From positions 124,001 to 188,000 of the forward strand of contig NW_003314391.1 in the NCBI RefSeq assembly GCF_000143415.4: a stretch of 64,000 nucleotides of DNA, read 5' to 3'. This document shows, in pieces, positions 27,809-62,672 of the stretch (within the stretch, counting starts at the first letter, position 1; each line of letters begins with the position of its first letter). The notes below the pieces were generated by a model that saw nothing but the letters and a program-made list of their open reading frames with translations, made no database searches and had not been told where the DNA came from. The DNA comes from Selaginella moellendorffii (Eukaryota; Plantae; Lycopodiophyta). A program made the position numbers and the translations under genes.

Positions 27809-30486
27809 GGGGCAACTCGAGCAACCAAATGATCCCGAGAAGGAGGAGCAGCTGCGCAAGTTGCACATGTTATGGACGCCCTCCAAGGGTAAGCTGCTAT
27901 TTCCTTTGTTGGTGCCTGTGGATGTTTCCTTCGCTCTGTGGCACTTGTCTAGTTGTTGCTATGGCTATGGCTGCAGGTGGCGCTGTGGTTTCTTGAACAG
28001 CACCTTGTTGTGGCTGGCTGTTTTGCCTGTGTTGGCTTAAGCTAGTTGTGTGGACGAGTTTGTGTATACATAAGATATAAGATGTGACTTGATGCTTGTT
28101 ATTCTCTACTGCACTGCTTGAGAGCGCATTTGTCTTTTGGTGGCTATGCCGTGGCGTTGTAACTGGTTTCTGGGTGTTTTTTTCACTTGTTTTCTTGTTT
28201 ACAGGAATATACATTACGGAAACAGATTTTACACGTTGGTGTGACACTTATATCTCTCTCAAACGGTCAGCAGTAGCACAGTTAGCAATAGACGAGTCAG
28301 GTTATAAGGGAAGGTTCCCTTCTGCTCGGACACTTGTGTGCTCGCTTGATGGTTTACCATGCTTATTGTGGGAAGGTGTTGGAAGTGGACTTGTAGAGTT
28401 GGACAAAAGGTTTTCAGAAATGTTGTTTCCTCAGAGCTTGACTGTGCTCTTAGCACCTAGTGGATCAGGGAAAACAAGAATGCTGATTGAACTAGCCAGC
28501 ACCAGGTTCAGTTTGTTTTTCACAGGTGACCGTCCCATTGTTGGGTTTGGAGGAGGATCAAAAGATGTTCACAGAGTGGCCAACTGGGTGCAAAGCCATT
28601 TTCCAGGAGGGGAAAGTAATATTGCCCCAGAGGATCCAGTGATGCGGTGTGGCGTGGGGGCCTTAATCCTTGCACGGCTCACTTGGCTTAAATTATTGAA
28701 AGAGTGTAAGCCAGGGCTTGTTCCACGAGACTGGGCGTTTTTTCAGCTGGAGTATCCGGCAGTTGATGACGTGTTTCTACATCTGGTTGAGGAGTTGCTT
28801 GCTTTGGTCCGTGATGTCCATCAAGCGCCCTCTTTGGCTAACAACTTTCACTTCGGCATACAAAAGCTGCTACACGAGGTGGGTTGGGGGTATGGCATAG
28901 TTGTGCTAGACGAAGCCCAGGCATTATTAAAGTGCAGCCGAACTCCTCAGGAAGGGCAGTCTTTGTTGAATTCCATCGTTTTTGCGCTTAGGTCGTATGG
29001 TGTGCTGCGAAGTCCCCTGTTTGTTTCAGGTACAGGAAAGTGCATGTTGACGTTTCGGCAGATTCTTTATTCTGGAAGATTTGCGAAACAGTCGTATATG
29101 AGAGAGATTTACAGTCTACCTGGGTTTGATGGCAGCAACATCCAAGCGTTTATGGAAAGGTTTATAGATGTCAGTCGTCTAGACATGCTAGCTGTTATCT
29201 CCACCTACACAGGAAGGAGACGACTGTTATCAACCGCTATTGAGAAGTATATTATGGAGACTGCACCTGCTGCAGATTGGTTCATGGAGTTTGCACGAAG
29301 GATGATCACTGAAACAGGCCGGGAACTTGGAGTCCATCGCTCTTTGAGAGATGATGCGGTTTTGCTGTGGAACGATCCTGAGATGGCAAGCTTTATAGAA
29401 GATCTAATATTTACTTACTATCTCTCAGGTAAGACAGAAAGCTTTATAGAATTATGTGAAATTTACTTTATTACTTTTTCAGGTGCCGGACATGTGATTG
29501 TACCAGGACGGAGGAGGGGCATGACTCTTGTAGACTGTGGTTTTGCAACTCTCCTTGAGAGCAGCAATGGAGCAGAACCTTTTGCACCTATACTTCCATA
29601 TATCAGAGGGGTCACTGATAATGAAGTTCAAGCTCCTGGTTCGTCAGTTACAACAGAGATTTGTTATATAATTTTGCGAGAGCCATTGGTGGTAGATGCA
29701 TTGTGGTACCATATGCCACAAGGTACGTTCATGGGGTCCTTTATGAACACATTTAAAAACCCATCTATACGCAAAATTAACTTCAAGACATATGTATGTA
29801 CAACTCTTGGAAGTGTCTTTGAGAAGAAGGTGCCAGCAGAGGTGCTCGGATTGGTTGAAACACACGCCATGTATAAGGAGACTTATGAGCTTTTAAAACC
29901 GAAAGAACTATCAGCAATGCTAGTGCAAGAGATTGGGAATGCGGAACAGCTAAACAACTGGCTCCAGTCAGTGGAGACTGGTTTGTCGTTTGCAACATAT
30001 GCTCACACAGGGCCATTCTGCAAAGCAGGACCAGAGGCAGTGTTTTTCTTGTGGAATGGTAAGCTGAACAAAAAGATGCCTGTGTTTGTACAGTTCAAAA
30101 CGGGAAGTGAGCTAGGAGCAACTCAAGCATTTGCGACACTGGACATCATGAAACTGGACAACAAAGTGAATTCAGAAGGCTCTCACAAACTCAAAGAGTG
30201 GTGTTCCACTGGGTATATAAGACTGGTTGTGACAACAGAGCAACACCCACGAGCGGGAGAGGTGGTCTTTGAAGAAGTAAGGCAGAGTGAACATTTGAAA
30301 GAAAAAGCTGTGGTAAGTTTGAAAGTTGCATGCTATTTGAACTTACTACTGTGATCTGTTCTGTAGGTTCCACCTTTGTCAGCTGTTTGGGCCGGTGAAA
30401 GGCTACGTGGTATTGTGAATATAGAATTACTTGACGCTATAGAAGAGTTGAAGAAAAATCTGAACAAACGGAAAACGGGGCAATAA
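27780..30486 (+). CDS. Crinkler/RHS(CR)-type P-loop NTPase + restriction-endonuclease-fold protein (exons 27780-27888, 28205-29428, 29483-30312, 30367-30486)
   Basis: Walker A VLLAPSGSGKTR, Walker B GIVVLDEAQ, VSGTG, GRRR (R-finger-like), C-terminal AGPEAVFFL...PVFVQFK (PD-(D/E)xK-like, QxK variant). All introns are phase-compatible GT-AG (two of 54 nt). Confidence 0.7.
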
Positions 30487-45829: not shown

Positions 45830-47100
45830 GATTCGAACCCCAGACGTCATTTTAAGAAATGACGCATATTTGCATTTAAGAAACATTTTCTAAAGCAAGA
45901 AAGAACTTCAGCAGTGAGCATGCCAATGTATGAAACTGCCCTTTCTGCGTCAACAATTGCCTCAAGTGCCTCTTCTCTTCGAGCCTGTTCCTTGGCTGCC
46001 TTCTCGGCTTTCACTGCCTCCTTGTGAGCAACTTCCAAGCAACCATGGCAATGGTCTTTCGAATCCTCGCAAGCCTGATGATACCAGCATTCACAGAATT
46101 CACACTGCACCCACAGCGTGTCCTCGAGAGTATTACAAACACAACATCTAGGATTTGCCTGCATCAAAAAATAAATTAAAAAAACATGAGAATATATGCT
46201 TGCTTTTCTGATTTTAGTTCATCAATGTCAATCGTTCTTCTTGTTGAAATGCTTTTCCATAGTCATCTGTGCTGGAAGTCATGCGTGCTTTCTTTTCTCG
46301 CAAAGCGAAAGCTGATTATCTCTCCACGATACCGACCATCCCTCAGCCTCCCCAGCTTCTCGTCGATACAGGCTAAGATCTTGTCAAAGCACCGGAAATT
46401 AAGATAGGCCTCATGCTAGATTAGTTCACCACCTCCGCCACATCAAACTTCCTTGTTTCAAACCAAGGACTCATGGAGTATACCGCCCACGCAAGGACGT
46501 GAGGCCTCCACTTGTCATCTGACGGGAACAATTCCCATGCTCTCGACCTGGCATGCTCGTGATCCTCAATCGCCCGAGCCCCTGTTGCAAACTGGATGAC
46601 TACGAAGTGCGAATCTGCAACATAGTAACAACCGAGTCCTTTCTCAGTTCCATGAATAGGAATGAAAGGCGTCGGAACGGAGATCTCTTTGGTCATCGCC
46701 ATTGTAAAGCTCCCACGAAATTTGCAGACTGCTGTCGGAGTTATAGTCACAGAGTCTTCTTGGTCATACTTTATGACGGGTTGCTTGTACCGGGCCACGA
46801 GATTGCATGCCTGCTGTGTGTTCAGACCAATTCGTGAGAAAATACCGCGATGATCGCTTTGGATAACTGATGTCCATAGCCGAATCTGCTCATCGATCTG
46901 GTCCAAGTTATCCACTGGACTTGCCACGAGCATGAACTAGGCCAATCAGATTCTGGATGTACTCTTTAAGAGCCTTACGGTACTTTCGATCGCTCCTGGT
47001 GGCAACCAACCCCGGAACCCAGCCAGTCTTCCACCAAATACAGTGCCTTCACGAACGCCAAGTAGTTCGTTATCTTCCTCGACAAAAACTGTTTAGAAAA
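45830..47100 (-). pseudogene. Degenerate repeat-associated gene ending in a PHD-like finger
   Basis: CCVCNTLEDTLWVQCEFCECWYHQACED...CHGC is nearly identical to 61750-61880. Upstream ORF 46421-46933 is flanked by in-frame stops. Confidence 0.5.
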
Positions 47101-48149
47101 AACAGAAAAGAGAAGAAATACCATCTATATTAATCAGCAAAAAGCAGGGAGATAGAAATGGATTTGCTCGCGCCGGCTACGGGCCACGAGCGTTCGGCGT
47201 GTGGTTGTGCATCCTGCGAGGACACCGGTGGTTCCAGAGGGCGTGCCTATCTGCGACACTGTGTGCGAGGTACCAGCTCATATCACAAATCAGAGCTCTT
47301 TATGGGTTTGGCTCAAGAATCTCCTTCCCGATGTGGATTTGATCGACGGAGCAGCATCGGTCACGTGGGTTGAAGTTAACAAAGTTCCTTTGCTGCCCTC
47401 ATTCACATTATATGTCCGCAGAGCACCGCCAGATACGTGGTGGTAGAGTTTGATAGTATCTTGATGCTAACTCTGCTTGTCACTCAGCTCCATCATCAAG
47501 TCCATTGAGCTCAACTCTTGCCACTATTCGGTAGCGATGGCTGCTGACTCTTGTGGTATTCATGGAAAACATAAGGTTTTTACACCGGAGGTGCTCTCCG
47601 ACCCTAGTAAAGAAAGAATCATCACGTTCATGGAGAGCGCAGACACAGTTCAGTGATGGGCCGGCTCACTTATCACTTTTATCCGGGACTCGACCGTCAG
47701 GCGCTCTAAGTTTAACTTCGTGCTCAGATCAGCATCGTCTGGAAAGACTTAAAGCGTCCGTGCTGCGTCTCTGTTCCTCTTTCTGAAGTTTTTTTCCTCA
47801 GCACACAGAAGGCTGATGCACGTCAACGGGGAAGAGTTTTCGAAGTATCCAGTGACACTCATCCACTCGCTTGCCTTGGGTTATCACGACAGCAGTGCCA
47901 CTCAATACTACATTCAGAACCTCAGGGATGACAAAGATGTCCATCAGGTGACCAAGATCATGCAGAAGATAGTTCAGGGTGATAACAATAGAAGGCTTCA
48001 TCTGGTGCTGGATGATGGTCTTGAGATCTCTGCTGAGCATGCAGTTTTATTTTGGAGTATTGCTAGTTTTGGTGCTGTAGTCTTGTGTGGGAAGTGGCAA
48101 GAGTTTTTGAAAGATCTTCTTGAGGAAAAATTATATACACAATGAAGTA

Positions 48150-50130: not shown

Positions 50131-50258
50131 ATTTCTGTAAGCAACCAAAGGGAATGATTCGATAAATGATCCATAAGGGTTCAAATATAGAAGGAAAGGG
50201 CCCATGAACAAGAGTGCACCCCCTTTTCCAATCGGTTAAGGGTCTTGGGATATTTGAG

Positions 50259-50313
50259 GTTAAGCGTCCTTGGATTTGAATAGTACTAGGCTGGGTGACC
50301 TTCTAGGAAGTCC
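50259..50313 (+). promoter_or_regulatory. 5S rRNA-derived Pol III internal promoter (A box-IE-C box) in Cassandra LTR
   Basis: GTTAAGCGTCCTTGGATTTGAATAGTACTAGGCTGGGTGACCTTCTAGGAAGTCC versus plant 5S GTTAAGCGTGCTTGGGCGAGAGTAGTACTAGGATGGGTGACCTCCTGGGAAGTCC. Confidence 0.85.
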
Positions 50314-51159
50314 AAATTCAAGGAGCTTACATTTGGTATCAGAGCGGTCTCGAGTCCAACTTTGTTAGTGTAAGCCACAAATTTTTCCTTTCCAATTTGC
50401 CAGCTTACCTCGTCAATCCGTCCAACACTGCCTTGGCTTTTGCTAAGTTCCCTCGCCAAGGTTCTCGCCTATGGTACCAGCTCCTACTTGGTTTCAGCTA
50501 CTCACTGCACGAGCAACGGAGTGTTAGCCATCCTTCCACGGATTCCCAAATCACTCCCAATCCCCCTCCCCGGGTTAGACTGGACTAAGGTTCGGCTACA
50601 CTCCCCGCAAGCACAAGCAGCCAAGCACACCAAGCTTCCAGGTTCCTAACATCCCTTGGTACCACAAGACTTGATCATGGGACCCTCTAAATCCCAAGTC
50701 TTGAGTGCAACACTTGCTTCGGGACGTCGGGGCGAAACACCGTGGCCTAGCGGCCCGGTATGGGTACCTCTCGTCCCCCACTTCCATCCCGAAGGAAGGC
50801 CCAAGCCCCTAGGGAGGGCGAGGACCAATGAGCCGCATGGTACCCAAGTGGGGCACCACTCCACATGAGCCGGGAGCACCGCAATCGGTTTCCCTTTCGG
50901 GAGTGGGAGCTGCTCTTGAGCACTTCCTCGGATGGCCCCTCCGGCACCAGCCAAGTCCATGCTCACTCCCACCCAAGGCCCCTCGGTCCCAGTCCCAACC
51001 TCAAGTCAGTTTGGAAGCCCAACTGGAGAGTCCCTTCAAAACTGGTTCCTGGACCTCACTATCCCTACTATACTTTTGGAACCCCCTGCAGCCCCCCCCC
51101 CCTGGGGGACGCACGCTTTGGGCTTTCACCCCTTGACCCGTATTAGTATTTGGACTTAG

Positions 51160-51425
51160 TCTCTGGCTCGATCTCGGATCCGATTTCGGATCCGACTTCG
51201 GATTCGGTCTCGGACTCGATCGCGGACTCGATCTCGGACCCGATCTCGGGCCCGACCTCGGACTCGATTTCGGACTCGGTCTCGGACCCGATTTCGGATC
51301 TCGGACTCCGTCTCGAACTCGGTCTCGAACTCGGACTCGAACTCGGTCCCCGAGTCGGTCTCGGACTCGATTCCGGACTCTATCTCGAACTCGGTCCTAG
51401 AGTCGGTCTTGGACTCGATCTTTGA
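51160..51425. repeat. 6/12-bp TCGGAC/TCGATC tandem array inside LTR (second copy ~57543-57808)
   Basis: Iterated TCGGAC/TCGATC/TCGGTC/TCGAAC units. Confidence 0.85.
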
Positions 51426-51918
51426 CTTGGTCCCATCCGATAAACTCTTTGTCATTTTGGTCATGCTTTCGGGGTTCCTTTAGCCTACAACACCTCGGCG
51501 AGTTGGTTCCTTACAACTCCACCACCCATAGAAGAAGTTCGATGCCCACATCGAACGTCTCGTTTTTATCCTACGACTTGTTGACCATGTCTCCGGGGGC
51601 ATCCCCCCACTTAGCGGTGTGCCTAAGTTAGCCTCCCCGGCCAAGAGCTCATGACAACGGAATATAGGTGTCCCTATATTCCTCACCTCACCACGCCCTA
51701 GTATAGGGTCGGGACTTGAACCCAGCCTTGCTTTACTAGGGGGTTGGGACTCGAACCCAACCTCCGTAGAATACGTCTACGGATTCGACATCCCCGCAGG
51801 GAGTCGGGCGTAGCTCCCTACGCCTGGTCGACCTAGCTAACCCATGCTAATTAGCTTACCTTCGGCGCGCCTTCGGGTCCCAACATATGCCATTGCTCAA
51901 CTTCTCAAATTGATACTT

Positions 51919-54900
51919 TTAATTGAACTTTGCATAAGTACATAGAGTTCTGCCATGCAGAAATTCCTCCACTAGATCTCGCGCGTTCGCTAGGTTCTCC
52001 TCCGGTTCCCATGTTGCTTCGCAGTGTGGAAATCCTTTCCACTTCACATGGAACTCTCTCACCTCGCGTCCTTGTCGCTTGCTCTTGCGCGCATTGAGGA
52101 TGGCCTCGACTTCGTATTCCTCTTCCCCTTGGATAACCTCGGGTAGAGGTCTTACTTGGTCCTTGCGAAGCGGATCCTCAAAGTACGGCTTGAGTAAGTT
52201 CACGTGGAACACTGGGTGCATCTTCCCCATCTCTCGAGGAAGTCGGAGTCGGTAAGCCACTTTACCAATTCGTGCCTCAATCTCGTAAGGCCCCGCGAAC
52301 CTGCTTAAGGAACTCAAGATCAATTCATTTACAGGAATACATGCATTTTTACCTTTGGGTCAACTTTCGGCTGATCCCACTTGGTAGCCTGAGGTTCTTG
52401 GTGTTCAGCCACACCTTCTCCCCAGCTTGGAACTCCACATCCCGACGCTTTTGGTTCGCGTACTTAGTTTGCCTTTGTTGAGCCCGTTCCAAGGAATCCC
52501 TCACTAGATTCCAAATGTTGAGTCTTTCCGCCGTGAATGCCTCCACTGCGGGTAACTCTCCATGATACTCGGCCACGCCGAGTTCCACAGGACCTTCAAT
52601 AGCTCGCCCATTGATGACTTCCCATGGACTCACCCCGATGCTCGAATGTGGTGAGTTGTTATAACACATTTCCGCAAGTCCCAAATGACTTACCCAGTCG
52701 GTCTGGTCTCCCGAGACATAGCATCGCAAATAATCCTCCAGCTGCCTATTCACCCTTTCCGTTTGTCCGTCTGTCAAGAAGTGTTAGTGCCAACAATCTT
52801 GACTTAATACCCATTACCTGTCTGTGGGTGATAGGCTGTGCTGAATTTCAACTTGGTGCGATACTGTTCTAGGAGTGTCCTCCAGAACCTACTAGTGAAG
52901 ATCTTATCTCGATCTGAGATAATCTCTTCCGGCCTTCCCCGCACTCGAACCACTTGTTCGAAGAACAGCTTCGCCACACCTTCCGCATCCACGTCCGTTG
53001 TGGTGGGTATGAAATGTGCCATCTTTGAAAATCGGTCCACCACCACGAATATCGCATCGAACCCCTCGCTTGGGGGTAGTCCCGTGATGAAGTCCATCGT
53101 GAGACATTTCCACGGACGATCTGGAATGGGGATGCTTTGCAACAAGCCCCCACTAGCCTTCGTCACGGCTTTGACTTGCTGACATATTGGGCATGTCTTT
53201 ACATAGTCTTGGACGTCCTTAGCCATATCTGGCCAATGGTACTTCCTTTTGAGTAAGCCCATCGTCTTGGGCACTCCGCCGTGTCCCGCAAGAGGTCCGT
53301 CATGACACTCTTCCAAGGCTACCTTCCTTAGTTCCCCTTCTGGAACATACACTCTCGTTTGCTTGTAATAAATGAGTCCGTTGCGTTCCGCATAGCCCGT
53401 TTTTTCTTCCGTTGGCAGCTCACCTCTCTGGTGAGCTTCCCGCGCCTCCAGATTCCTCAACAACACTTCTTGTGCTAGACCATCGTTCTCATATGCTGTC
53501 CGCACATCGTCCCAGAAGGTTGTTGTTGCGCTGGAGATCGCCAACCTCAAGCTCGCTTTTCGACTTAGCGCATCTGCCACGATGTTGCTCTTCCCAGGCT
53601 TGTACAGGATCTCGCAATCAAACTCGGCCAAAGCATTGGCCCACCGACCTTGTTTTCCCCTTAGGTCGGGCTGTGACAAGAAGTGTTTCGTTGCCACATT
53701 GTCCGTGTAAACCTTGAAGTGTCTCCCAAGGTAGTGTCGCCACTCCTTGAGCGCCTTGACCACCGCAAACAATTCCTTCTCGTGGGCAGGCCACTTCCGT
53801 TGAGCCTTGTCCAGCTTTTTCGAGAAGAACGCTACTGGATGGTTGTCTTGCTTCAAAACTGCGCCCAACGCAAAGTCCGAAGCATCCGTGTCTACCTCAA
53901 AGTCCTTACCAAAGTCTGGTAATGCCAACACCGGAGCCTTCCTCAACTTCCCTTTGAGGTGGACGAATGCCGCCTCGCATTCCGCTGTCCATACCATCTT
54001 CCCTTTTCCTGTTTGGTCCGTTAAGGGCAGGGCTACTCTCGAATAGTGTCTGATAAACTTTCGATAGTAGTTGCATAGCCCCAGGAACGCCCTCAACTCA
54101 TGTACATTCGATGGTCGCTCCCATTCCTGGATCGCTTGGACCTTCTCCGGGTCCACCTTGAGCCCGTCCTGGCCCACCACATGCCCGAGAAACTTTACCT
54201 CTTGTTGAGCAAAGTCACATTTGCTCTCTTTAGCATACAGTTTATGTTCCCTTAGTTTCTCAAACACCTTCGCCAAGTGTTCGGCATGCTCCTCTAGCGT
54301 CTCGCTATAGATCAGGATGTCGTCAATATAGACGACCACGAAGTGATCCAGATAGGGTACAAAGACGTGGTTCATCAACGCCGAAAACGTTGCCGGCGCA
54401 TTGCACAGCCCAAAGGGCATCACCAAAAACTCGAAGCTCCCATACCTCGTTCGACAGGTTGTCTTCTCGACATCTTCCTCAGCTACCCTGATCTGGTAGT
54501 ATCCTGACCTTAGGTCAATCCTCGAGAAGTATTTTGCCTTTCCCAACCTATCGAACAGGTCCTCAATCCTTGGCAAAGGGTACTTGTTCTTCTTGGTATA
54601 CTTGTTGAGCAACCGGTAGTCTATGCACATGCGCATAGATCCATCTTTCTTTTTCACAAATAATACCGGCGCCCCATACGGCGACTTGCTCAACCTGACA
54701 TACCCTTTGCCCACCAACTCCTCTAGTTGGCACTTGAGCTCCTTGAGTTCTTTTTCGTTCAAACGATAGGGTGGACGAACCACCGCCTCAGCGCCCTCGA
54801 CCAGCTCAATCTTATGTTCTATCGGTCGTGCGGGGGGCAACCCCGCCGGTAGCTCCTCCGGCATGGTATCCTGGAATTGGTCCAGCACTTGCTGGATCAC

Positions 54901-56691
54901 TAAAGGTATTTCTTCCGTTCTTGTCTTTTTGTCACTCTTCACCGAGAGTAAGCACAAAAAGGCTGCTTTAGTTCCTTTAGTGAGTTGTCCTCTCGTGGAC
55001 ACCAGGTTTAAGCATGACTCTTTGGCCTTGCTTTGCCCTACCTTTAGATCCTGGGCCTCCACCCTAGATCTTCTTCCTTGGGCATTCGCCAATACCACAA
55101 GGTTCCTACCTTGTCCATGCAGGGCTACCACGAATCGATTAAACCAATCCATTCCGAAGATCACGTCAAATCCCGCCATGTCCAAGACGGTGAAATCCAT
55201 GTCCACTTTCCATGTCCCCACTTCGACTCTCGCTTGTCGAAGTACCTCATCGGTGCTTTGGCTACCTTGAACAAACTCTATAGTCCTTGGTTCGCCTAGC
55301 CGCTGCACCGTTAGTCCGGCTTGCCGGACTATGTCTGCAGCCACAAAATTATCCGAAGCACCCGTGTCAATAAGGATCTTAACAAAGCTACCTCCGAGCT
55401 TCCCTCGGAGGGCTAGTAGATGTCGCGAACGACTCTCTACCAAAGTTGCTCGTGTAATGAGTAACTTTGAGTTAGGGACTGGATCACATACCTCAGTTTG
55501 GACTTCACCCGACTTGATGGCCATATTGGCTCTGGCCTTCTTCGGGTAGGGACATTCCCTCGAGAAGTGTCCCGCTTCACCGCAGTTGTAGCATACGTTG
55601 TTTCCCACGCTGCTATATGACTTGACCTTCTTATCCGTGGGTTTGTCTCTTTTCGCTTGACTTCCCCACGTACTTGCTCGCTGGCCACCGGATTTGCCTT
55701 TCCGGAACCCCGAGGACTCATTCTTAGAGAAACTCTTCTTGAATTTCCCCCTACTATATGTTCCCCTTGGTTTGGCCCCTTTGCTAAACGTGGATCCCGA
55801 CCCCGTCGTGTTCCCCTTTCGCAGGTTATCGTTGAAATGCACCTTGATGGCCGCATCCAACGCTTCCTTGTAGTTGGTCGGGTTCCAGCGCATCACCTCA
55901 CCGCGAGCCCAGGTTTGCAAACCTGATATGAAGGCATGGAACGCATCCATATCCCCCATGTCCGTGACAAGTATCCTCTTTGCCATGAACCCATTCACAT
56001 ATTCCTGGATGGTTCCAGTCTGCTTCAGCCTACTCAATTCATCCCTCAGATGCAGAGTGGCATTCGGAGGAACATATGTTGCGCGGATCCTCGCCTTCAT
56101 CATGTCCCAAGTGACCACCGGTCCTTCATTGGCCTCCGTTGTTCTCCACCAAGACTTGGCATTATCTGCCAAGTATGGTTTTGCACATGGGACCTTCTCC
56201 GAGCTCGGTAACCGCAACGCTCGGAAGTAGTCCTCCATATCGTAAAACCAATCCTCCACCACCTTATAGTCATTCACTCCCTTGAAGACCGGTGGGGGCT
56301 TTGGTTTGTACTTGGGAACTGCCTGAGGGACTGATTCCACTTCAGTCTGTTCGACCTTGTCTGGTTTTGCCTCAGTCCCTGCCGAAGGGTCCGCACCTTC
56401 TGCGCTGCCAGCATCCGCAGTCTTTTTCTTTTTCTTCCGCCTCTCGTCACGCTTTAGCTTGCGTACGAGAGTTTCCAGCAGGGTATTGGTCTGTGCCAAC
56501 TGTCCTTCTAGCACGTCCAATCGAGCCTTGGACGACCGAACCTCGCCACCGGACTCCTGTTTGGAAGTTTCCTCACTAGAGTCCTCCTCATGCAAGGATT
56601 CCTCATCCATAGCCTCTTGTTCGACTGGAGGCTCCAGCTCCGGCGGAGGTTCCGTCTCCGCCTGGGTTCGCTTACGTCCTGCCCTTGCCAT
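51919..56691 (-). CDS. Gag-pol polyprotein (gag, CCHC, PR, RT, RNaseH, IN, chromodomain), 3 exons: 56691-52818, 52770-52353, 52300-51919 (1557 aa spliced)
   Basis: [33 protein letters not shown] zinc finger, MDFI/SDRD/HPQT|DGQTER, FAGPY, chromodomain YEVEAIL...[15 protein letters not shown]. The frames join exactly via GT-AG introns. Confidence 0.92.
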
Positions 56692-59030
56692 CTCCCAGCA
56701 ATCCGCCTCTATCCTTCGCTAGAACTGAGATAAAGGCTCCGATACCAAATTGTAAGCCACAAATTTTTCCTTTCCAATTTGCCAGCTTACCTCGTCAATC
56801 CGTCCAACACTGCCTTGGCTTTTGCTAAGTTCCCTCGCCAAGGTTCTCGCCTATGGTACCAGCTCCTACTTGGTTTCAGCTACTCACTGCACGAGCAACG
56901 GAGTGTTAGCCATCCTTCCACGGATTCCCAAATCACTCCCAATCCCCCTCCCCGGGTTAGACTGGACTAAGGTTCGGCTACACTCCCCGCAAGCACAAGC
57001 AGCCAAGCACACCAAGCTTCCAGGTTCCTAACATCCCTTGGTACCACAAGACTTGATCATGGGACCCTCTAAATCCCAAGTCTTGAGTGCAACACTTGCT
57101 TCGGGACGTCGGGGCGAAACACCGTGGCCTAGCGGCCCGGTATGGGTACCTCTCGTCCCCCACTTCCATCCCGAAGGAAGGCCCAAGCCCCTAGGGAGGG
57201 CGAGGACCAATGAGCCGCATGGTACCCAAGTGGGGCACCACTCCACATGAGCCGGGAGCACCGCAATCGGTTTCCCTTTCGGGAGTGGGAGCTGCTCTTG
57301 AGCACTTCCTCGGATGGCCCCTCCGGCACCAGCCAAGTCCATGCTCACTCCCACCCAAGGCCCCTCGGTCCCAGTCCCAACCTCAAGTCAGTTTGGAAGC
57401 CCAACTGGAGAGTCCCTTCAAAACTGGTTCCTGGACCTCACTATCCCTACTATACTTTTGGAACCCCCTGCAGCCCCCCCCCCCCTGGGGGACGCACGCT
57501 TTGGGCTTTCACCCCTTGACCCGTATTAGTATTTGGACTTAGTCTCTGGCTCGATCTCGGATCCGATTTCGGATCCGACTTCGGATTCGGTCTCGGACTC
57601 GATCGCGGACTCGATCTCGGACCCGATCTCGGGCCCGACCTCGGACTCGATTTCGGACTCGGTCTCGGACCCGATTTCGGATCTCGGACTCCGTCTCGAA
57701 CTCGGTCTCGAACTCGGACTCGAACTCGGTCCCCGAGTCGGTCTCGGACTCGATTCCGGACTCTATCTCGAACTCGGTCCTAGAGTCGGTCTTGGACTCG
57801 ATCTTTGACTTGGTCCCATCCGATAAACTCTTTGTCATTTTGGTCATGCTTTCGGGGTTCCTTTAGCCTACAACACCTCGGCGAGTTGGTTCCTTACAGT
57901 TAGTTGGCTAAGGGAATCACACCATATGTTGATTGACATCTGGCTGGTCTAATTTGCTCCCGCTGGGCTCGACCCGAGGGGTAGGGTGTCAAGAGAGCGG
58001 GGCTCTCGGGAGAGCTGCGGCTCTCAGCTTCCGTTCACGAGGGCGTGAACTTGCAAGGAAGCATGGTAGATTGTAAGCAATCAAAGGGAACGATTCGATA
58101 GATGATCCATAAGGGTTCAAATATAGAGGGAAAGGGCCCATGAACAAGAGTGCACCCCTTTTTTCCAATTGGTTAAGGGTTTTGGGATATTTGAGGTTAA
58201 GCGTCCTTGGATTTGAATAGTACTGGGCTGGGTGACCTTCTGGGAAGTCCAAATTCAAGGAGCTTACAATTTCATCATTTCTTTAAAATCCTTTTAAACA
58301 TTATATAAATTAAACTTTTTACTATAATATTTAAATATCTTTTAGCCTAGTGAAACAATATTCTCTGAAAAAGAGTAATGAAGAAGGTAAATTTATGAAA
58401 AGAAAAAAATTTATTATATATCTTTAAAAGAATATATTTAAATCCTTCCTAAGAATAAAAAGAAAAACTAAGTATACTTTTAAAAAAATTATGTAATTTA
58501 TATATAAAAAGATTTTATGGAAGAATTCTAGCAACTCAGTATATCACAACAATTATTATTAATTTAGAAAAAAAAGAGTTTAAAAATATCTTTTTTAAAT
58601 AGTTTTTCTTATTACTTCTTTTTTTAAAATGGTAATTCAAGTCTAAAAGAACACATAAATATAACAAACCCATAAAATTAATATAGGTTAATAGTTCTTT
58701 ATATTCCCTTAGACTTGTAATCACATTTCATAAAAAAAACTATTTAAAAAAGAAAAAATATACTTTTTAAACTCCATACTCTATCGTTGCAATATACTAA
58801 AGAAAAATACACTTTTTAAACTCCGTACTCCCATCTCGCTACAACATGCTCAACATGCTAAATTGACTTATCATGTGTAAACAACTAAATTTTCCATTCT
58901 ACTTTAATTACTTAATCATACCTCCAACCACATGAAAGAGTCTTACTCACAACCTCTATAAGTTTTATTCCAGGTTTGGAGACTTATTAGCCCCATGAAT
59001 GACATTTATGCCACTTAATCTTTACACTTG

Positions 59031-59215
59031 TGTAAGCAATCAAAGAAAATGACTTGAAAGATGATCCATGGGGTTCAAATATAGAAGGAAATAGCCTATG
59101 AATAAAAGTGCACCCCCTTTTCCAAACGATTAAGGGTCTTAAGATATTTAGGGTTAAGTGTTCTTGGGTTTGAATAGTACTGACCTCCTGGGAAGTCCAA
59201 ATCCAAGAGCTTACA
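59031..59215 (+). mobile_element. Degenerate solo Cassandra-type LTR
   Basis: TGTAAGCAATCAAAG...GAGCTTACA, with internal deletion in the 5S segment. Flanks ACTTG / ACTTA (imperfect 5-bp TSD). Confidence 0.85.
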
Positions 59216-59980
59216 ACTTAGTCCAAATGCTTTACATATTCGATCCCATGATTGACAACACAAAGGTATTATCGATATATTATCCTGTTATGTTAAGGCT
59301 ATGCATTATACATGTTACCTTTTAGAAGGTGGCATTCAAACGGATGGTTTGGATGAGGTGGCATGCCACGTGGCATACTTTTATGTACTTATAGCATGCC
59401 ACGTGGCAAACCCTTGGAAAGGTGTATAAACTCCACTTCCCTACCTTAAGAAGTTCTTTATTTAAGGGCACCATCATCCTCTCTTCTATTTTGTGCCACT
59501 CTAGACATTAAATTCCACTTATCTATAATTTATACTAGGGTTGTTTACGGCTTTATCATTTGGCTATCTCACCGCTCCCTCTTTTGGAGTTATTACATTT
59601 GCCAAATTGGAGCATTTAGGAATCTATCTTTGAAAATATATTTCCTTTTCCACAATCGGTTAGCATCCAACACATGAGTGTTCTTTACCTAGCTTTGCTA
59701 CTTCTAATGATTTCTATACCTTATTCTTAGGCACTAATCTTTTGCTCCTAAGTTGTGAGAACAAATCCCTAAGCCCTAAAGTGGAGCAAAAAGGGTGCCA
59801 TATGGTAGTGGTTAAAGTGGAAGTTTAACAAATGTAACATGTTTGGACCAAAGACTGCAACTTAGAAAGTCGAGAGTGGGAGTAGAACTCCGAATAAAGT
59901 GCTTAAGGAATGAGCATAAAGCAATCAGTGAATGAATTTTTAAGAAGGGATATAAGAAGGACTAACACATAGAATGATCG

Positions 59981-62672
59981 ACATCGAGGAACTGGAATTA
60001 GAAAAGCAGGAAAGAACCTTCTATTCAAGCAGTAAACAGTAACGACCGAATCCATGAGCAACATAAGTTAACAGCAATGACAACAAAAAGCTAAAGGAAG
60101 AGAAAAGTAAGCAAAGAAAAAAACATCAGTGCCTCAAAACTTGGTTGCTTGCTTGTGACTGAATGAAAAACTGCCATGGCACAAACTGTATGAAAGGTCT
60201 TGCGAAAGATCACCACTTTCTTACGCCAAAATTCAGTAAGCGAGCAGTAACTCACCAGAGCATACCATTGTCACGCTCAATAATGCGGCGGGGATCACGC
60301 CATCACCTGGATGGAGACGGAGAACGTGCCAGTGTACTACCACCACTCAAAAAAGAGCACAGCATCACGACTGCATCTTAAACCCTAGATGCCGGATGGA
60401 CTCAAATCTAATTTTTGAACTCGGGCTGCCACGTTTTCCGAGATTCGAACCCTGAAATTTCCAGCTCACTAAGGCAGTATTTTTCGCCTCCTCTTGGCTG
60501 CATAAAAGAGGTTTGAACAGCAATGAGCATGCCAATGTATGAAGCTGACCTCTGCCATCCCTTGCATGCACTTCTACCTCAACAATTGCCTCGAGTGCCT
60601 CTTCCTTTCTAGCCTGTTCTAGATGAGCTACCTTCTCGGCTTTCACTGCCTCCTTGTGTCCAAGCAACCATGGGAATTAGGAGACGCTAATGAGAGAGAA
60701 AACAGGGTACATGATCATGACCTAACTACCCCGTGCCACGTGGCAGAAGCCTGTGGAGCCAGGCACCTAAGGTCTGACCTCGGCTGCCCAACACTCAGCA
60801 TCCCCCACTATCCTTCTGGTGCTCGCGGCCTACCACCTCAGGGAGACAAGCACTTTACCCCAGGGAGTCAAGCACTTCACCCCACGTGCTCGAGCCTGAG
60901 CCCAAGCCCGTGTTGCCTGGGTCCATTGGGCTAAGCGTTTGAGAATTTCGTCCAAATAGCGCTGCTGAGAAAGATGAATAATACCATGGGACCGGTCTCG
61001 AATAATATTAAGACCAAGACAAAACTTAATATCTCCAAGATCGTCCATCTCAAATTGAGAAGAGAGCTGCTCTTTTATCATGGTATCAGATTGTAGAGGA
61101 GGCGAAGAATACCTCGTTTTGCGTGGTGGGCAATGGACGGCCATCAAGGACGAGCAGAGTTGCTTTGGCAAGTACATGGAGCAACACAGACCTACTGGTG
61201 TCACTTCTCCACCGACTTTATAATTAAACCAGCGTCAGCTTCATCTTCGATATTGTGTATGATGAGGGAAGACTGATCATCCAGCGCGTTTTAAAGCTCG
61301 GCATTTGCTTTTGGAATTGTAGTCATGCATACTCTGTATCATTGTTGTACCAGATCAATGCGCACATTGTTTGGTCCAGCGACATCATTTCATCCTTGGT
61401 GACTCTGTAGAATGGAACCGCTAGGAGTTCCACTTCTGCTTCAGCCAGGCCCAAGAAAATATCAAGAGAAAGACACAAGCATGCTGCGAACATCTGGAAG
61501 GTGGCCCAAAGAATCACCCGATTTTACAACCTGAAATTCGAGGCCAGTGCAGGTACCCCCGGTCAAGCGGATGTAGTTGAGTTTCATCTTCATTTCGGAG
61601 TACAGCGCCTCGCGTCACGTGCATTAACCTGGGCACCCAGGATGTGCATCAAGTCCACGAGATGTCACAGGTCCATCGAAGGCAGCTTCTGGCGCATGCT
61701 CTCGAAGTCTTCCTAGATGCGACCAGGTAATTGCTGACGAGTCAAAGGCATGCAGGCAAATCCTAGATGTTGTGTTTGTAATACTCTTGAGGACACGCTG
61801 TGGGTGCAATGTGAATTCTGTGAATGCTGGTATCATCAAGCTTGCGAGGATTCAAAAGACCATTGCCATGGTTGCTTGAAAGTTGCTCACAAGGAGGCAG
61901 TGAAAGCCGAGAAGGTAGCCCATCTAGAACAGGCTAGAAAGGAAGAGGCACTCGAGGCAACTGTTGAGGCAGAAGTGCATGCAAGGGATGGCAGAGGTCA
62001 GCTTCATACATTGGCATGTTCATTGCTGTTCAAACCTCTTTGTTTTTTTCCTTTTGCAGCCAAGAGGAGGCGAAAAAATGCTGCCTTTAGTGTTTCAAAT
62101 CATATAGCAAATCATAAGGTGGCCATTTCTAGCGTTTGTTAATCAACCTCGACCTTTAGGGCTTCTCGATTCTCCACGATCGAATCTTGGAAAACTTGGC
62201 AGCCCGAGTTTAGAAATTATTATATGGTTTTAGCGAGAAGGCGCTCGATCGAGGTTCCAAACAAAGCTCCCAAATCTTTGTGCTGGAGAAGAAGAGAAAA
62301 ACCCATTTATGTCCATCCTTCTCATGGCTTTCCAGCTTGAAGATCCTGAGGATGACTTCCTTCTTTGCAAAAAGTCCGTGATGGCCTCAATGACTGTTTC
62401 TTGAGCCCTGAATTTTGGCGTAAGAAGGTGGTAATCTTTCTCAAGATCTTCCATACAGTTTGTGCCATGGTAGTTTTTTATTCAGTAATGTGAAGCACAA
62501 GCAAACAACCAATTTTGAGGTACTGATTTTTTTTTCTTTGCTTGCTTTTCTCTTCCTTTTGCTTTTTGTTGTCGTTGCTGTTAACTTACGTTGCTCGTGG
62601 ATTCGGTCGTTGTTGTTTACTGCTTGAACAGAAGGTTCTTTCCTGCTTTTCTGATTCCAGTTCCTCGATGTT
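59981..62672. repeat. Long imperfect inverted repeat (arms ~59981-60672 and ~61864-62672)
   Basis: CATCGAGGAACTGGAATTAGAAAAGCAGG... is the reverse complement of ...CCTGCTTTTCTGATTCCAGTTCCTCGATG. HKEAVKAEKVAHLEQARKEEALEA is encoded on opposite strands in the two arms. Confidence 0.85.
60934..61085 (-). mobile_element. Ty1/copia reverse transcriptase fragment
   Basis: IKEQLSSQFEMDDLGDIKFCLGLNIIRDRSHGIIHLSQQRYLDEILKR. Confidence 0.85.

Follow-up and report, generated by a model that had tools for sequence, protein, structure and literature searches.

Two spliced introns within the integrase gene of an intact SM1-Galahad-type chromovirus of Selaginella moellendorffii

Results

A whole LTR retrotransposon lies on the reverse strand of the window, as we call the full stretch of 64,000 nucleotides of S. 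moellendorffii DNA that was analysed (Table 1). It shows the features of a chromovirus, with TG...CA LTRs, a target site duplication (TSD), a primer-binding site (PBS), which we take to be of the initiator tRNA-Met type, and a polypurine tract. Pfam matches give the order Gag, protease, reverse transcriptase (RT), RNase H and integrase, followed by a C-terminal chromodomain that is found on exon 3 only. Gag to integrase core form a single open frame of 1295 aa starting at 56691; the ORFs of this copy measure 3885, 318 and 309 bp, and its exons together encode 1557 aa. An earlier note on this DNA, made from the sequence alone, had claimed near-identical LTRs and a perfect TSD, and this was borne out: the 1147 aligned bases of the LTR pair are all identical, with one 1-base gap in the poly-G run, and GTTAG is present on both sides, which argues for a recent insertion. 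The probable transcription start was placed on the basis that RNA coverage of the LTR begins at 51045 in the 3' copy (run X16).

Table 1. Location of the retrotransposon and its parts in the window.
Feature	Position	Strand	Description
Whole LTR retrotransposon (chromovirus, SM1-Galahad type)	50369..57898	-	7530 bp; sizes match those given in PMC3350952
5' LTR	56751..57898	-	1148 bp, TG...CA, poly-G of 12
3' LTR	50369..51515	-	1147 bp, poly-G of 11; rest as 5' LTR
TSD GTTAG, left copy	50364..50368		
TSD GTTAG, right copy	57899..57903		
Presumed promoter	57420..57460	-	TATA-like word near 57455, probable transcription start near 57428
Primer-binding site	56735..56747	-	13 nt, presumably initiator tRNA-Met type; label partly from PMC3350952
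Exon 1, coding part	52818..56691	-	Gag, zinc knuckle, protease, RT, RNase H, integrase zinc-binding domain and start of core
Intron 1	52771..52817	-	47 nt, phase 1, GT-AG, CACTAAC branch-point word, in-frame stop
Exon 2	52353..52770	-	third catalytic residue Glu (52759-52757, D(35)E spacing) and remaining integrase core
Intron 2	52301..52352	-	52 nt, phase 2, GT-AG, in-frame stop; directly before GPY motif
Exon 3, coding part	51919..52300	-	GPY/F SH3-like module and group I chromodomain (about 52116-51961); stop 51921-51919
Putative internal polyadenylation signal	51899..51943	-	24% GC, TGTA at 51942, ATTAAA at 51923
Polypurine-tract-like stretch, upstream of 3' LTR	51516..51529	-	

The U3 part of each LTR (51080-51403 and 57463-57786) holds a 300-nt degenerate 12-mer tandem array, partly self-complementary, which is followed by the poly-G run immediately ahead of the presumed promoter. 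A 45-nt patch (51513-51557), comprising the polypurine tract and bases upstream of it, is common to another repeat, perhaps the sister family; contigs of runs X17 and X5 match this patch and diverge on both sides of it. The retrotransposon is inserted into another LTR element, which is small (about 600 bp), non-coding and presumably TRIM-like (50136-50331, 57904-58268 and 59031-59215, forward strand). This element has LTRs of 196 and 197 bp (187 bases identical), the TSD ATTTC, a tRNA-Met PBS and an interior of 205 nt, and 760 bp beyond it a third LTR of this type, more diverged, is found. Elsewhere in the window, a 753-codon intron-less open frame with a P-loop-like word near its start (28093-30354, forward strand) lies within an intron-rich host region. 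A repeat with a PHD-finger-like frame is present in at least three copies in both orientations (45909-46245, 59964-60663 and 61750-62671; 88-96% alike), and a Copia-type RT remnant is situated between copies of it at 60830-61234.

The chromovirus reported in the earlier note belongs to a family that had already been described as SM1-Galahad of S. moellendorffii (Novikov et al. 2012, PMC3350952). That description was built from several copies, and gives an element of ~7.5 kb with LTRs of ~1146 bp, a poly-G run of 11-25, a 13-bp tRNA-Met PBS and ORFs of 3885 bp (1295 aa, without chromodomain), 316 bp and 309 bp, the last with a group I chromodomain. The present copy matches it at 7530 bp, LTRs of 1147/1148 bp, 11-12 G, a 13-nt PBS, ORFs of 3885 and 309 bp exactly and one of 318 against 316 bp, the assignment being made by published sizes and layout. 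Placement in the Galadriel clade is taken from the same paper; some Selaginella chromoviruses are listed as unclassified (PMC6317226). According to the 2012 description no intact copy was found, and the terms 'intron' and 'splic' have no occurrence in its whole main text (PMC3350952). In the present analysis the gaps between the ORFs turn out to be spliced introns, and the copy in the window, whose LTRs are identical and which is flanked by a TSD, is intact. Since the sister family SM2-Galahad has a single ORF of 1577 aa (PMC3350952), as against a total of 1557 aa for the exons of the present copy, a gain of the introns within the SM1 line is likely.

The two segments proposed as introns in the earlier note were correct in coordinates, lengths and ends. 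Intron 1 reads GTAATG...CACTAAC...GACAG and intron 2 GTAAAA...TAAGCAG, and their GC content is 38% and 33% against about 52% for the element. When the exon peptides were aligned separately with 120 homologues, exactly one residue, that of the split codon, was left between neighbours in 163/163 projections at junction 1 and 22/22 at junction 2; the projections outnumber the homologues because repeated-domain proteins yield several each. In the alignment with Ty3 Gag-Pol, exon 1 extends up to residue 1267 and exon 2 starts from residue 1269. The probability of finding GT..AG ends by chance, over all allowed registers, is 1.6% for a cut of 47 nt and 2.0% for one of 52 nt. Both segments have features of U2-type introns, namely GT-AG ends and removal in RNA, with a branch word that is clear in intron 1 and weak in intron 2. 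The claimed match in size to host introns holds in part: 47 and 52 nt fall within the range of the 11 host introns delimited with peptide anchors (44-147 nt, 6/11 at 51-62 nt, two picks ambiguous and one further anchor pair yielding no intron), but at its short end.

The catalytic residues of integrase have the spacing DD(35)E. Exon 1 carries the first two catalytic Asp (aa 1200 and 1260), and intron 1 is positioned four codons upstream of a Glu which, from established knowledge, we take to be the third catalytic residue. Counted across intron 1, there are 35 residues from Asp1260 to this Glu, and its placement is backed by the Ty3 and PFV alignments; in 238/241 homologues the Glu stands five residues past a conserved motif. 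Since the Glu, the GPY/F module and the chromodomain all lie beyond the introns, unspliced RNA encodes an integrase without any of the three. Repeats of 5 nt (intron 1) and 4 nt (intron 2), such as an introner-type insertion might leave as a target duplication, are present at the junctions and are mostly splice consensus. The last five bases of intron 1 are the same as the last five of exon 1 (window 52780-52772), so that the exon-2 frame reads the conserved motif already inside the intron.

The earlier note had proposed a search of related chromoviruses for introns at the same positions, and none was found among viral and metagenome contigs and 241 homologues. The homologue searches returned nothing closer than ~54% identity and no database protein of the SM1-Galahad family, spliced or unspliced. 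A degenerate pattern describing such an intron at this position gave 0 matches in viral contigs in either of two codon variants. Two metagenome-contig matches to the pattern, with one codon variant, were rejected as chance, being without integrase similarity, and 2/241 homologues that end just past the motif are fragments in which normal residues are read, with no sign of an intron.

Eight of 24 runs were labelled RNA or RNA?, the latter labels being guesses; five of these eight, and three of the other 16, were examined for splicing from window position 54500 downstream. A check by junction reads had been proposed earlier, and it came out in favour of splicing: both exact junctions are present in contigs of three of the five RNA-labelled runs, from two studies. 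In X15 one contig of 1083 nt skips both introns exactly, in X18 both are skipped exactly in two contigs, and in X16 one contig of 2500 nt has both joins; in these three runs only spliced contigs were assembled. Intron 1 is skipped in one of the eight raw reads of X24. X17 is without a joint; intron 1 is present in full in its contigs, and intron 2 in part. The check on host introns was made for X16 only. Its depth is zero at five listed places inside three predicted host introns and 60-62 at four exon places, and it is zero over 45937-47258, where the DNA run X1 reaches 750-830; by this pattern of coverage X16 behaves as RNA. The spliced contigs are ~2-3% diverged from the window copy (in X16, 64 differences over 2430 nt), which indicates that they come from sister copies and not from this very copy; the locus they stem from may lack its 3' part or the introns. 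Both segments are real spliced introns.

The introns are retained in DNA. In X5 a gap-free contig of 884 nt keeps both introns and a second gap-free contig, 7% diverged, keeps intron 1, while a gap-free contig of 746 nt in X10 keeps intron 1 and 46/52 nt of intron 2. Private insertions, which the earlier note had named as an outcome that would speak against its claim, are not what these data show: the introns are family-wide, as judged from run contigs and the published multi-copy consensus (PMC3350952). In the DNA run X1 there was no 47- or 52-nt skip among the best 15 of 181 joints, with some joints uncounted. The depth of these 15 is 249-650 against ~270 for single-copy DNA, and since the joints listed reach single-copy depth without an intron skip, intron-less copies cannot be common in X1. 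The depth of X1 over the element is ~10^6 against 270, a ratio that gives no copy number.

Differences between the window and the run contigs are synonymous in 27/31 cases in exon 1 and in 8/9 in exons 2-3 (p 0.001), against an expected share of 0.34 for both, as counted among the 40 listed of 98 differences. The bias in exons 2-3 argues that the sequence beyond the premature stop is in use. By this comparison of sequences, exons 2-3 have been under purifying selection, the same as the rest of the frame, while the intron-bearing family multiplied. Runs X4, X6 and X10, which are labelled as other organisms, hold 62-64% of sampled words. For X10, horizontal transfer was considered and is less likely than carry-over, since this run has patchy low cover of the element together with host single-copy DNA, and a sibling run has none.

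In X15, X18 and X16, which belong to two studies, the last positions of the spliced contigs are 51962, 51967 and 51972. These ends precede the stop codon by 41-51 nt and the polypurine tract by ~430 nt. Over 51500-51903 the depth of X15 and X18 is nil. X16 has no depth over 51046-51885, yet its LTR is covered at 50544-51045, and cover from 51045 down is what is expected for a transcript of the 5' LTR that starts ~25 nt behind the TATA-like word. For the set of runs that includes X15 and X18, no loose end is listed at the site where the spliced contigs end, and DNA contigs continue past it; for the X16 set, the list comprises 24 loose ends, with 1277 further ones outside it. The stop codon falls in the 45-nt stretch of the internal region that is poorest in GC (24%), which also holds TGTA and the element's single ATTAAA. 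A single ATTAAA over 7.5 kb does not amount to an excess, and its TAA is the stop codon itself. The RNA evidence comes almost entirely from assembled contigs, from which neither a 3' end nor a level can be read, and the common contig ends are a weak hint of early polyadenylation. The contigs of X17 that retain intron 1 cross the stop codon (51806-52063), and about three of the eight reads of X24 lie in the 3' untranslated part; these fit full-length RNA and equally DNA carry-over, and are silent on a coupling of splicing to the RNA end. On balance, the spliced RNA is probably polyadenylated at its stop codon.

Discussion

The principle of an unspliced genome with enzymes made from spliced RNA is known from Ogre and foamy viruses, and introns inside an LTR-retrotransposon integrase were not found described in the literature searched. 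The earlier note had treated the Ogre intron as a mere tuner of the Gag:Pol ratio, which is not tenable because its removal is needed to translate RT, RNase H and integrase (PMC6317226). Ogre is similar to the present element in that genomic copies keep an intron which must be removed for the enzyme domains, and its transcripts are partly spliced (PMC6317226, PMC12786077). The introns described here are not of the Ogre type, however: Gag to integrase core is one open frame, two introns of ~50 nt lie inside the integrase, one of them within the catalytic triad, and RT and RNase H are readable from unspliced RNA. In foamy viruses, too, integrase comes from spliced RNA and the genome is unspliced, but there splicing removes the gag region, Pol is made apart from Gag and the integrase has no intron (PMC7828637).

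A closer parallel for the RNA ends is the Ty1/Copia element EVADE and its shGAG RNA (Oberlin et al. 2017, PMC5580714), in which spliced RNA ends early and unspliced RNA is full length. An intron-deleted EVADE construct makes only the short RNA, and a retained 5' splice site suppresses early termination (PMC5580714). The Copia arrangement is inverted with respect to ours: there the spliced short RNA encodes Gag only, whereas here it is predicted to encode the complete polyprotein and the genomic RNA a truncated one. That paper reports no conserved splicing in Arabidopsis Ty3/Gypsy elements (PMC5580714). If splicing and early termination are tied in the way set out below, SM1-Galahad would be a mirror image of the Copia strategy, one that was not found described for any Ty3/Gypsy element.

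Penelope-like elements also keep spliceosomal introns through transposition, but they are not LTR elements and lack a DDE integrase (PMC2377424). Ginger1 DNA transposons have Gypsy-type integrase genes with 1-4 GT-AG introns, and since they are without RT nothing erases these introns (PMC2836005). Ginger1 is bounded by terminal inverted repeats, in contrast to the present element, which has LTRs, PBS, Gag, RT and RNase H. A 2025 review names Ogre and EVADE as the only intron-bearing plant LTR elements (PMC12786077), and passages of PMC2864245, PMC5718144, PMC9804982, PMC7197481, PMC6839031, PMC13469084 and bioRxiv 10.1101/2024.04.02.587720 describe no intron inside a retrotransposon integrase. 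In the literature searched, no intron inside an LTR-retrotransposon integrase and no splicing of SM1-Galahad were found; Repbase, REXdb and subscription journals lay outside this scope and may annotate them.

The introns would be lost if spliced RNA were reverse-transcribed. Since they are distant from the packaging region at the 5' end, the spliced RNA has to be excluded in some other way. The statement of the earlier note that the element packages unspliced RNA and makes its integrase from spliced mRNA is sustained in so far as integrase and chromodomain are readable only from spliced RNA and DNA keeps the introns. Its account of intron persistence overlooked the likely early polyadenylation at the stop codon, which would be a simple reason. 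The "integration switch" that it proposed, taken as regulated retention, is not supported, and three of the five RNA-labelled runs gave spliced contigs only.

That a spliced mRNA serves for integrase and an unspliced RNA for copying is very probably correct. The best explanation overall combines these two RNAs with early polyadenylation of the spliced one, and we give it a probability of about 0.6. According to this explanation, the spliced mRNA, polyadenylated at the stop codon, would be the only source of complete Gag-Pol with catalytic integrase and chromodomain. It would end before the polypurine tract and the 3' LTR, and, being without the plus-strand primer and the 3' repeat, could not become a new copy. 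The unspliced read-through RNA would be the sole template for reverse transcription. By analogy with EVADE, a retained intron, with its unused 5' splice site ~450 nt upstream, may suppress the internal poly(A) site so that transcription reaches the 3' LTR. Integrase would be supplied to particles in trans from the spliced mRNA, and an intron-less copy would make short RNA only and die out, by which the introns would be locked in. We consider it an even chance that the element has taken up two host-type micro-introns by which mRNA and genome RNA become mutually exclusive, such that introns are never erased and host splicing gates integration; splicing would then license the integrase and end the RNA at the stop codon, and retention would silence the integrase and let the RNA reach the 3' LTR.

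The main rival is selective packaging, in which both RNAs would be full length and Gag would package unspliced RNA only, be it in cis during translation, by nuclear capture or via a signal that overlaps an intron; regulated retention might then act as the integration switch of the earlier note. All the evidence on splicing and on retention in DNA fits it, as does the difference between runs, the contigs of X17 retaining introns and those of X15, X16 and X18 being without; Penelope elements, moreover, carry introns through retrotransposition (PMC2377424). We nevertheless think it unlikely. It leaves unexplained the AT-rich end point shared by the spliced contigs of three runs and the missing 3' untranslated part and U3 in X16, and the RNA status of X17 is a label guess.

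Help from other copies and recoding are weaker alternatives. A rare intron-less master copy might be the autonomous member of the family, give rise to the joined RNA and mobilise the intron-bearing majority. The joined contigs do share private differences across two studies, which points to one source locus or subfamily, and the X1 joints considered are 15 of 181 with some uncounted; yet these 15, at single-copy depth, hold no skip of 47 or 52 nt, the published multi-copy consensus is interrupted with no intact copy found (PMC3350952), and the downstream exons of intron-bearing copies show purifying selection, all of which makes a master copy improbable. More doubtful again is that the family is non-autonomous for integrase, its dead insertions being served by the intron-less sister SM2-Galahad and its splicing being incidental. 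Although SM2-Galahad has one 1577-aa ORF and hundreds of copies (PMC3350952), such help would not account for two segments removed to the base with the frame restored twice, nor for synonymous changes in 8/9 listed differences of exons 2-3. We give hardly any credence to integrase made from unspliced RNA via ribosomal frameshifting or read-through. The end of intron 1 repeats the exon end, and the second frame also reads TDGQTER, but two recoding events and foreign residues in the catalytic helix would be needed, the Glu is five residues past the motif in 238/241 homologues, and spliced RNA was observed.

Textbooks take the loss of introns as proof of an RNA intermediate. In SM1-Galahad, which has hundreds of recent copies, introns persist within the integrase catalytic triad, and their likely gain dates from the time since the family separated from its single-ORF sister SM2-Galahad. 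A family filed as without an intact copy now has an intact one, and ORF-based pipelines may misfile such intron-bearing elements as dead. The element offers a compact natural system for how a retroelement distinguishes genomic RNA from mRNA.
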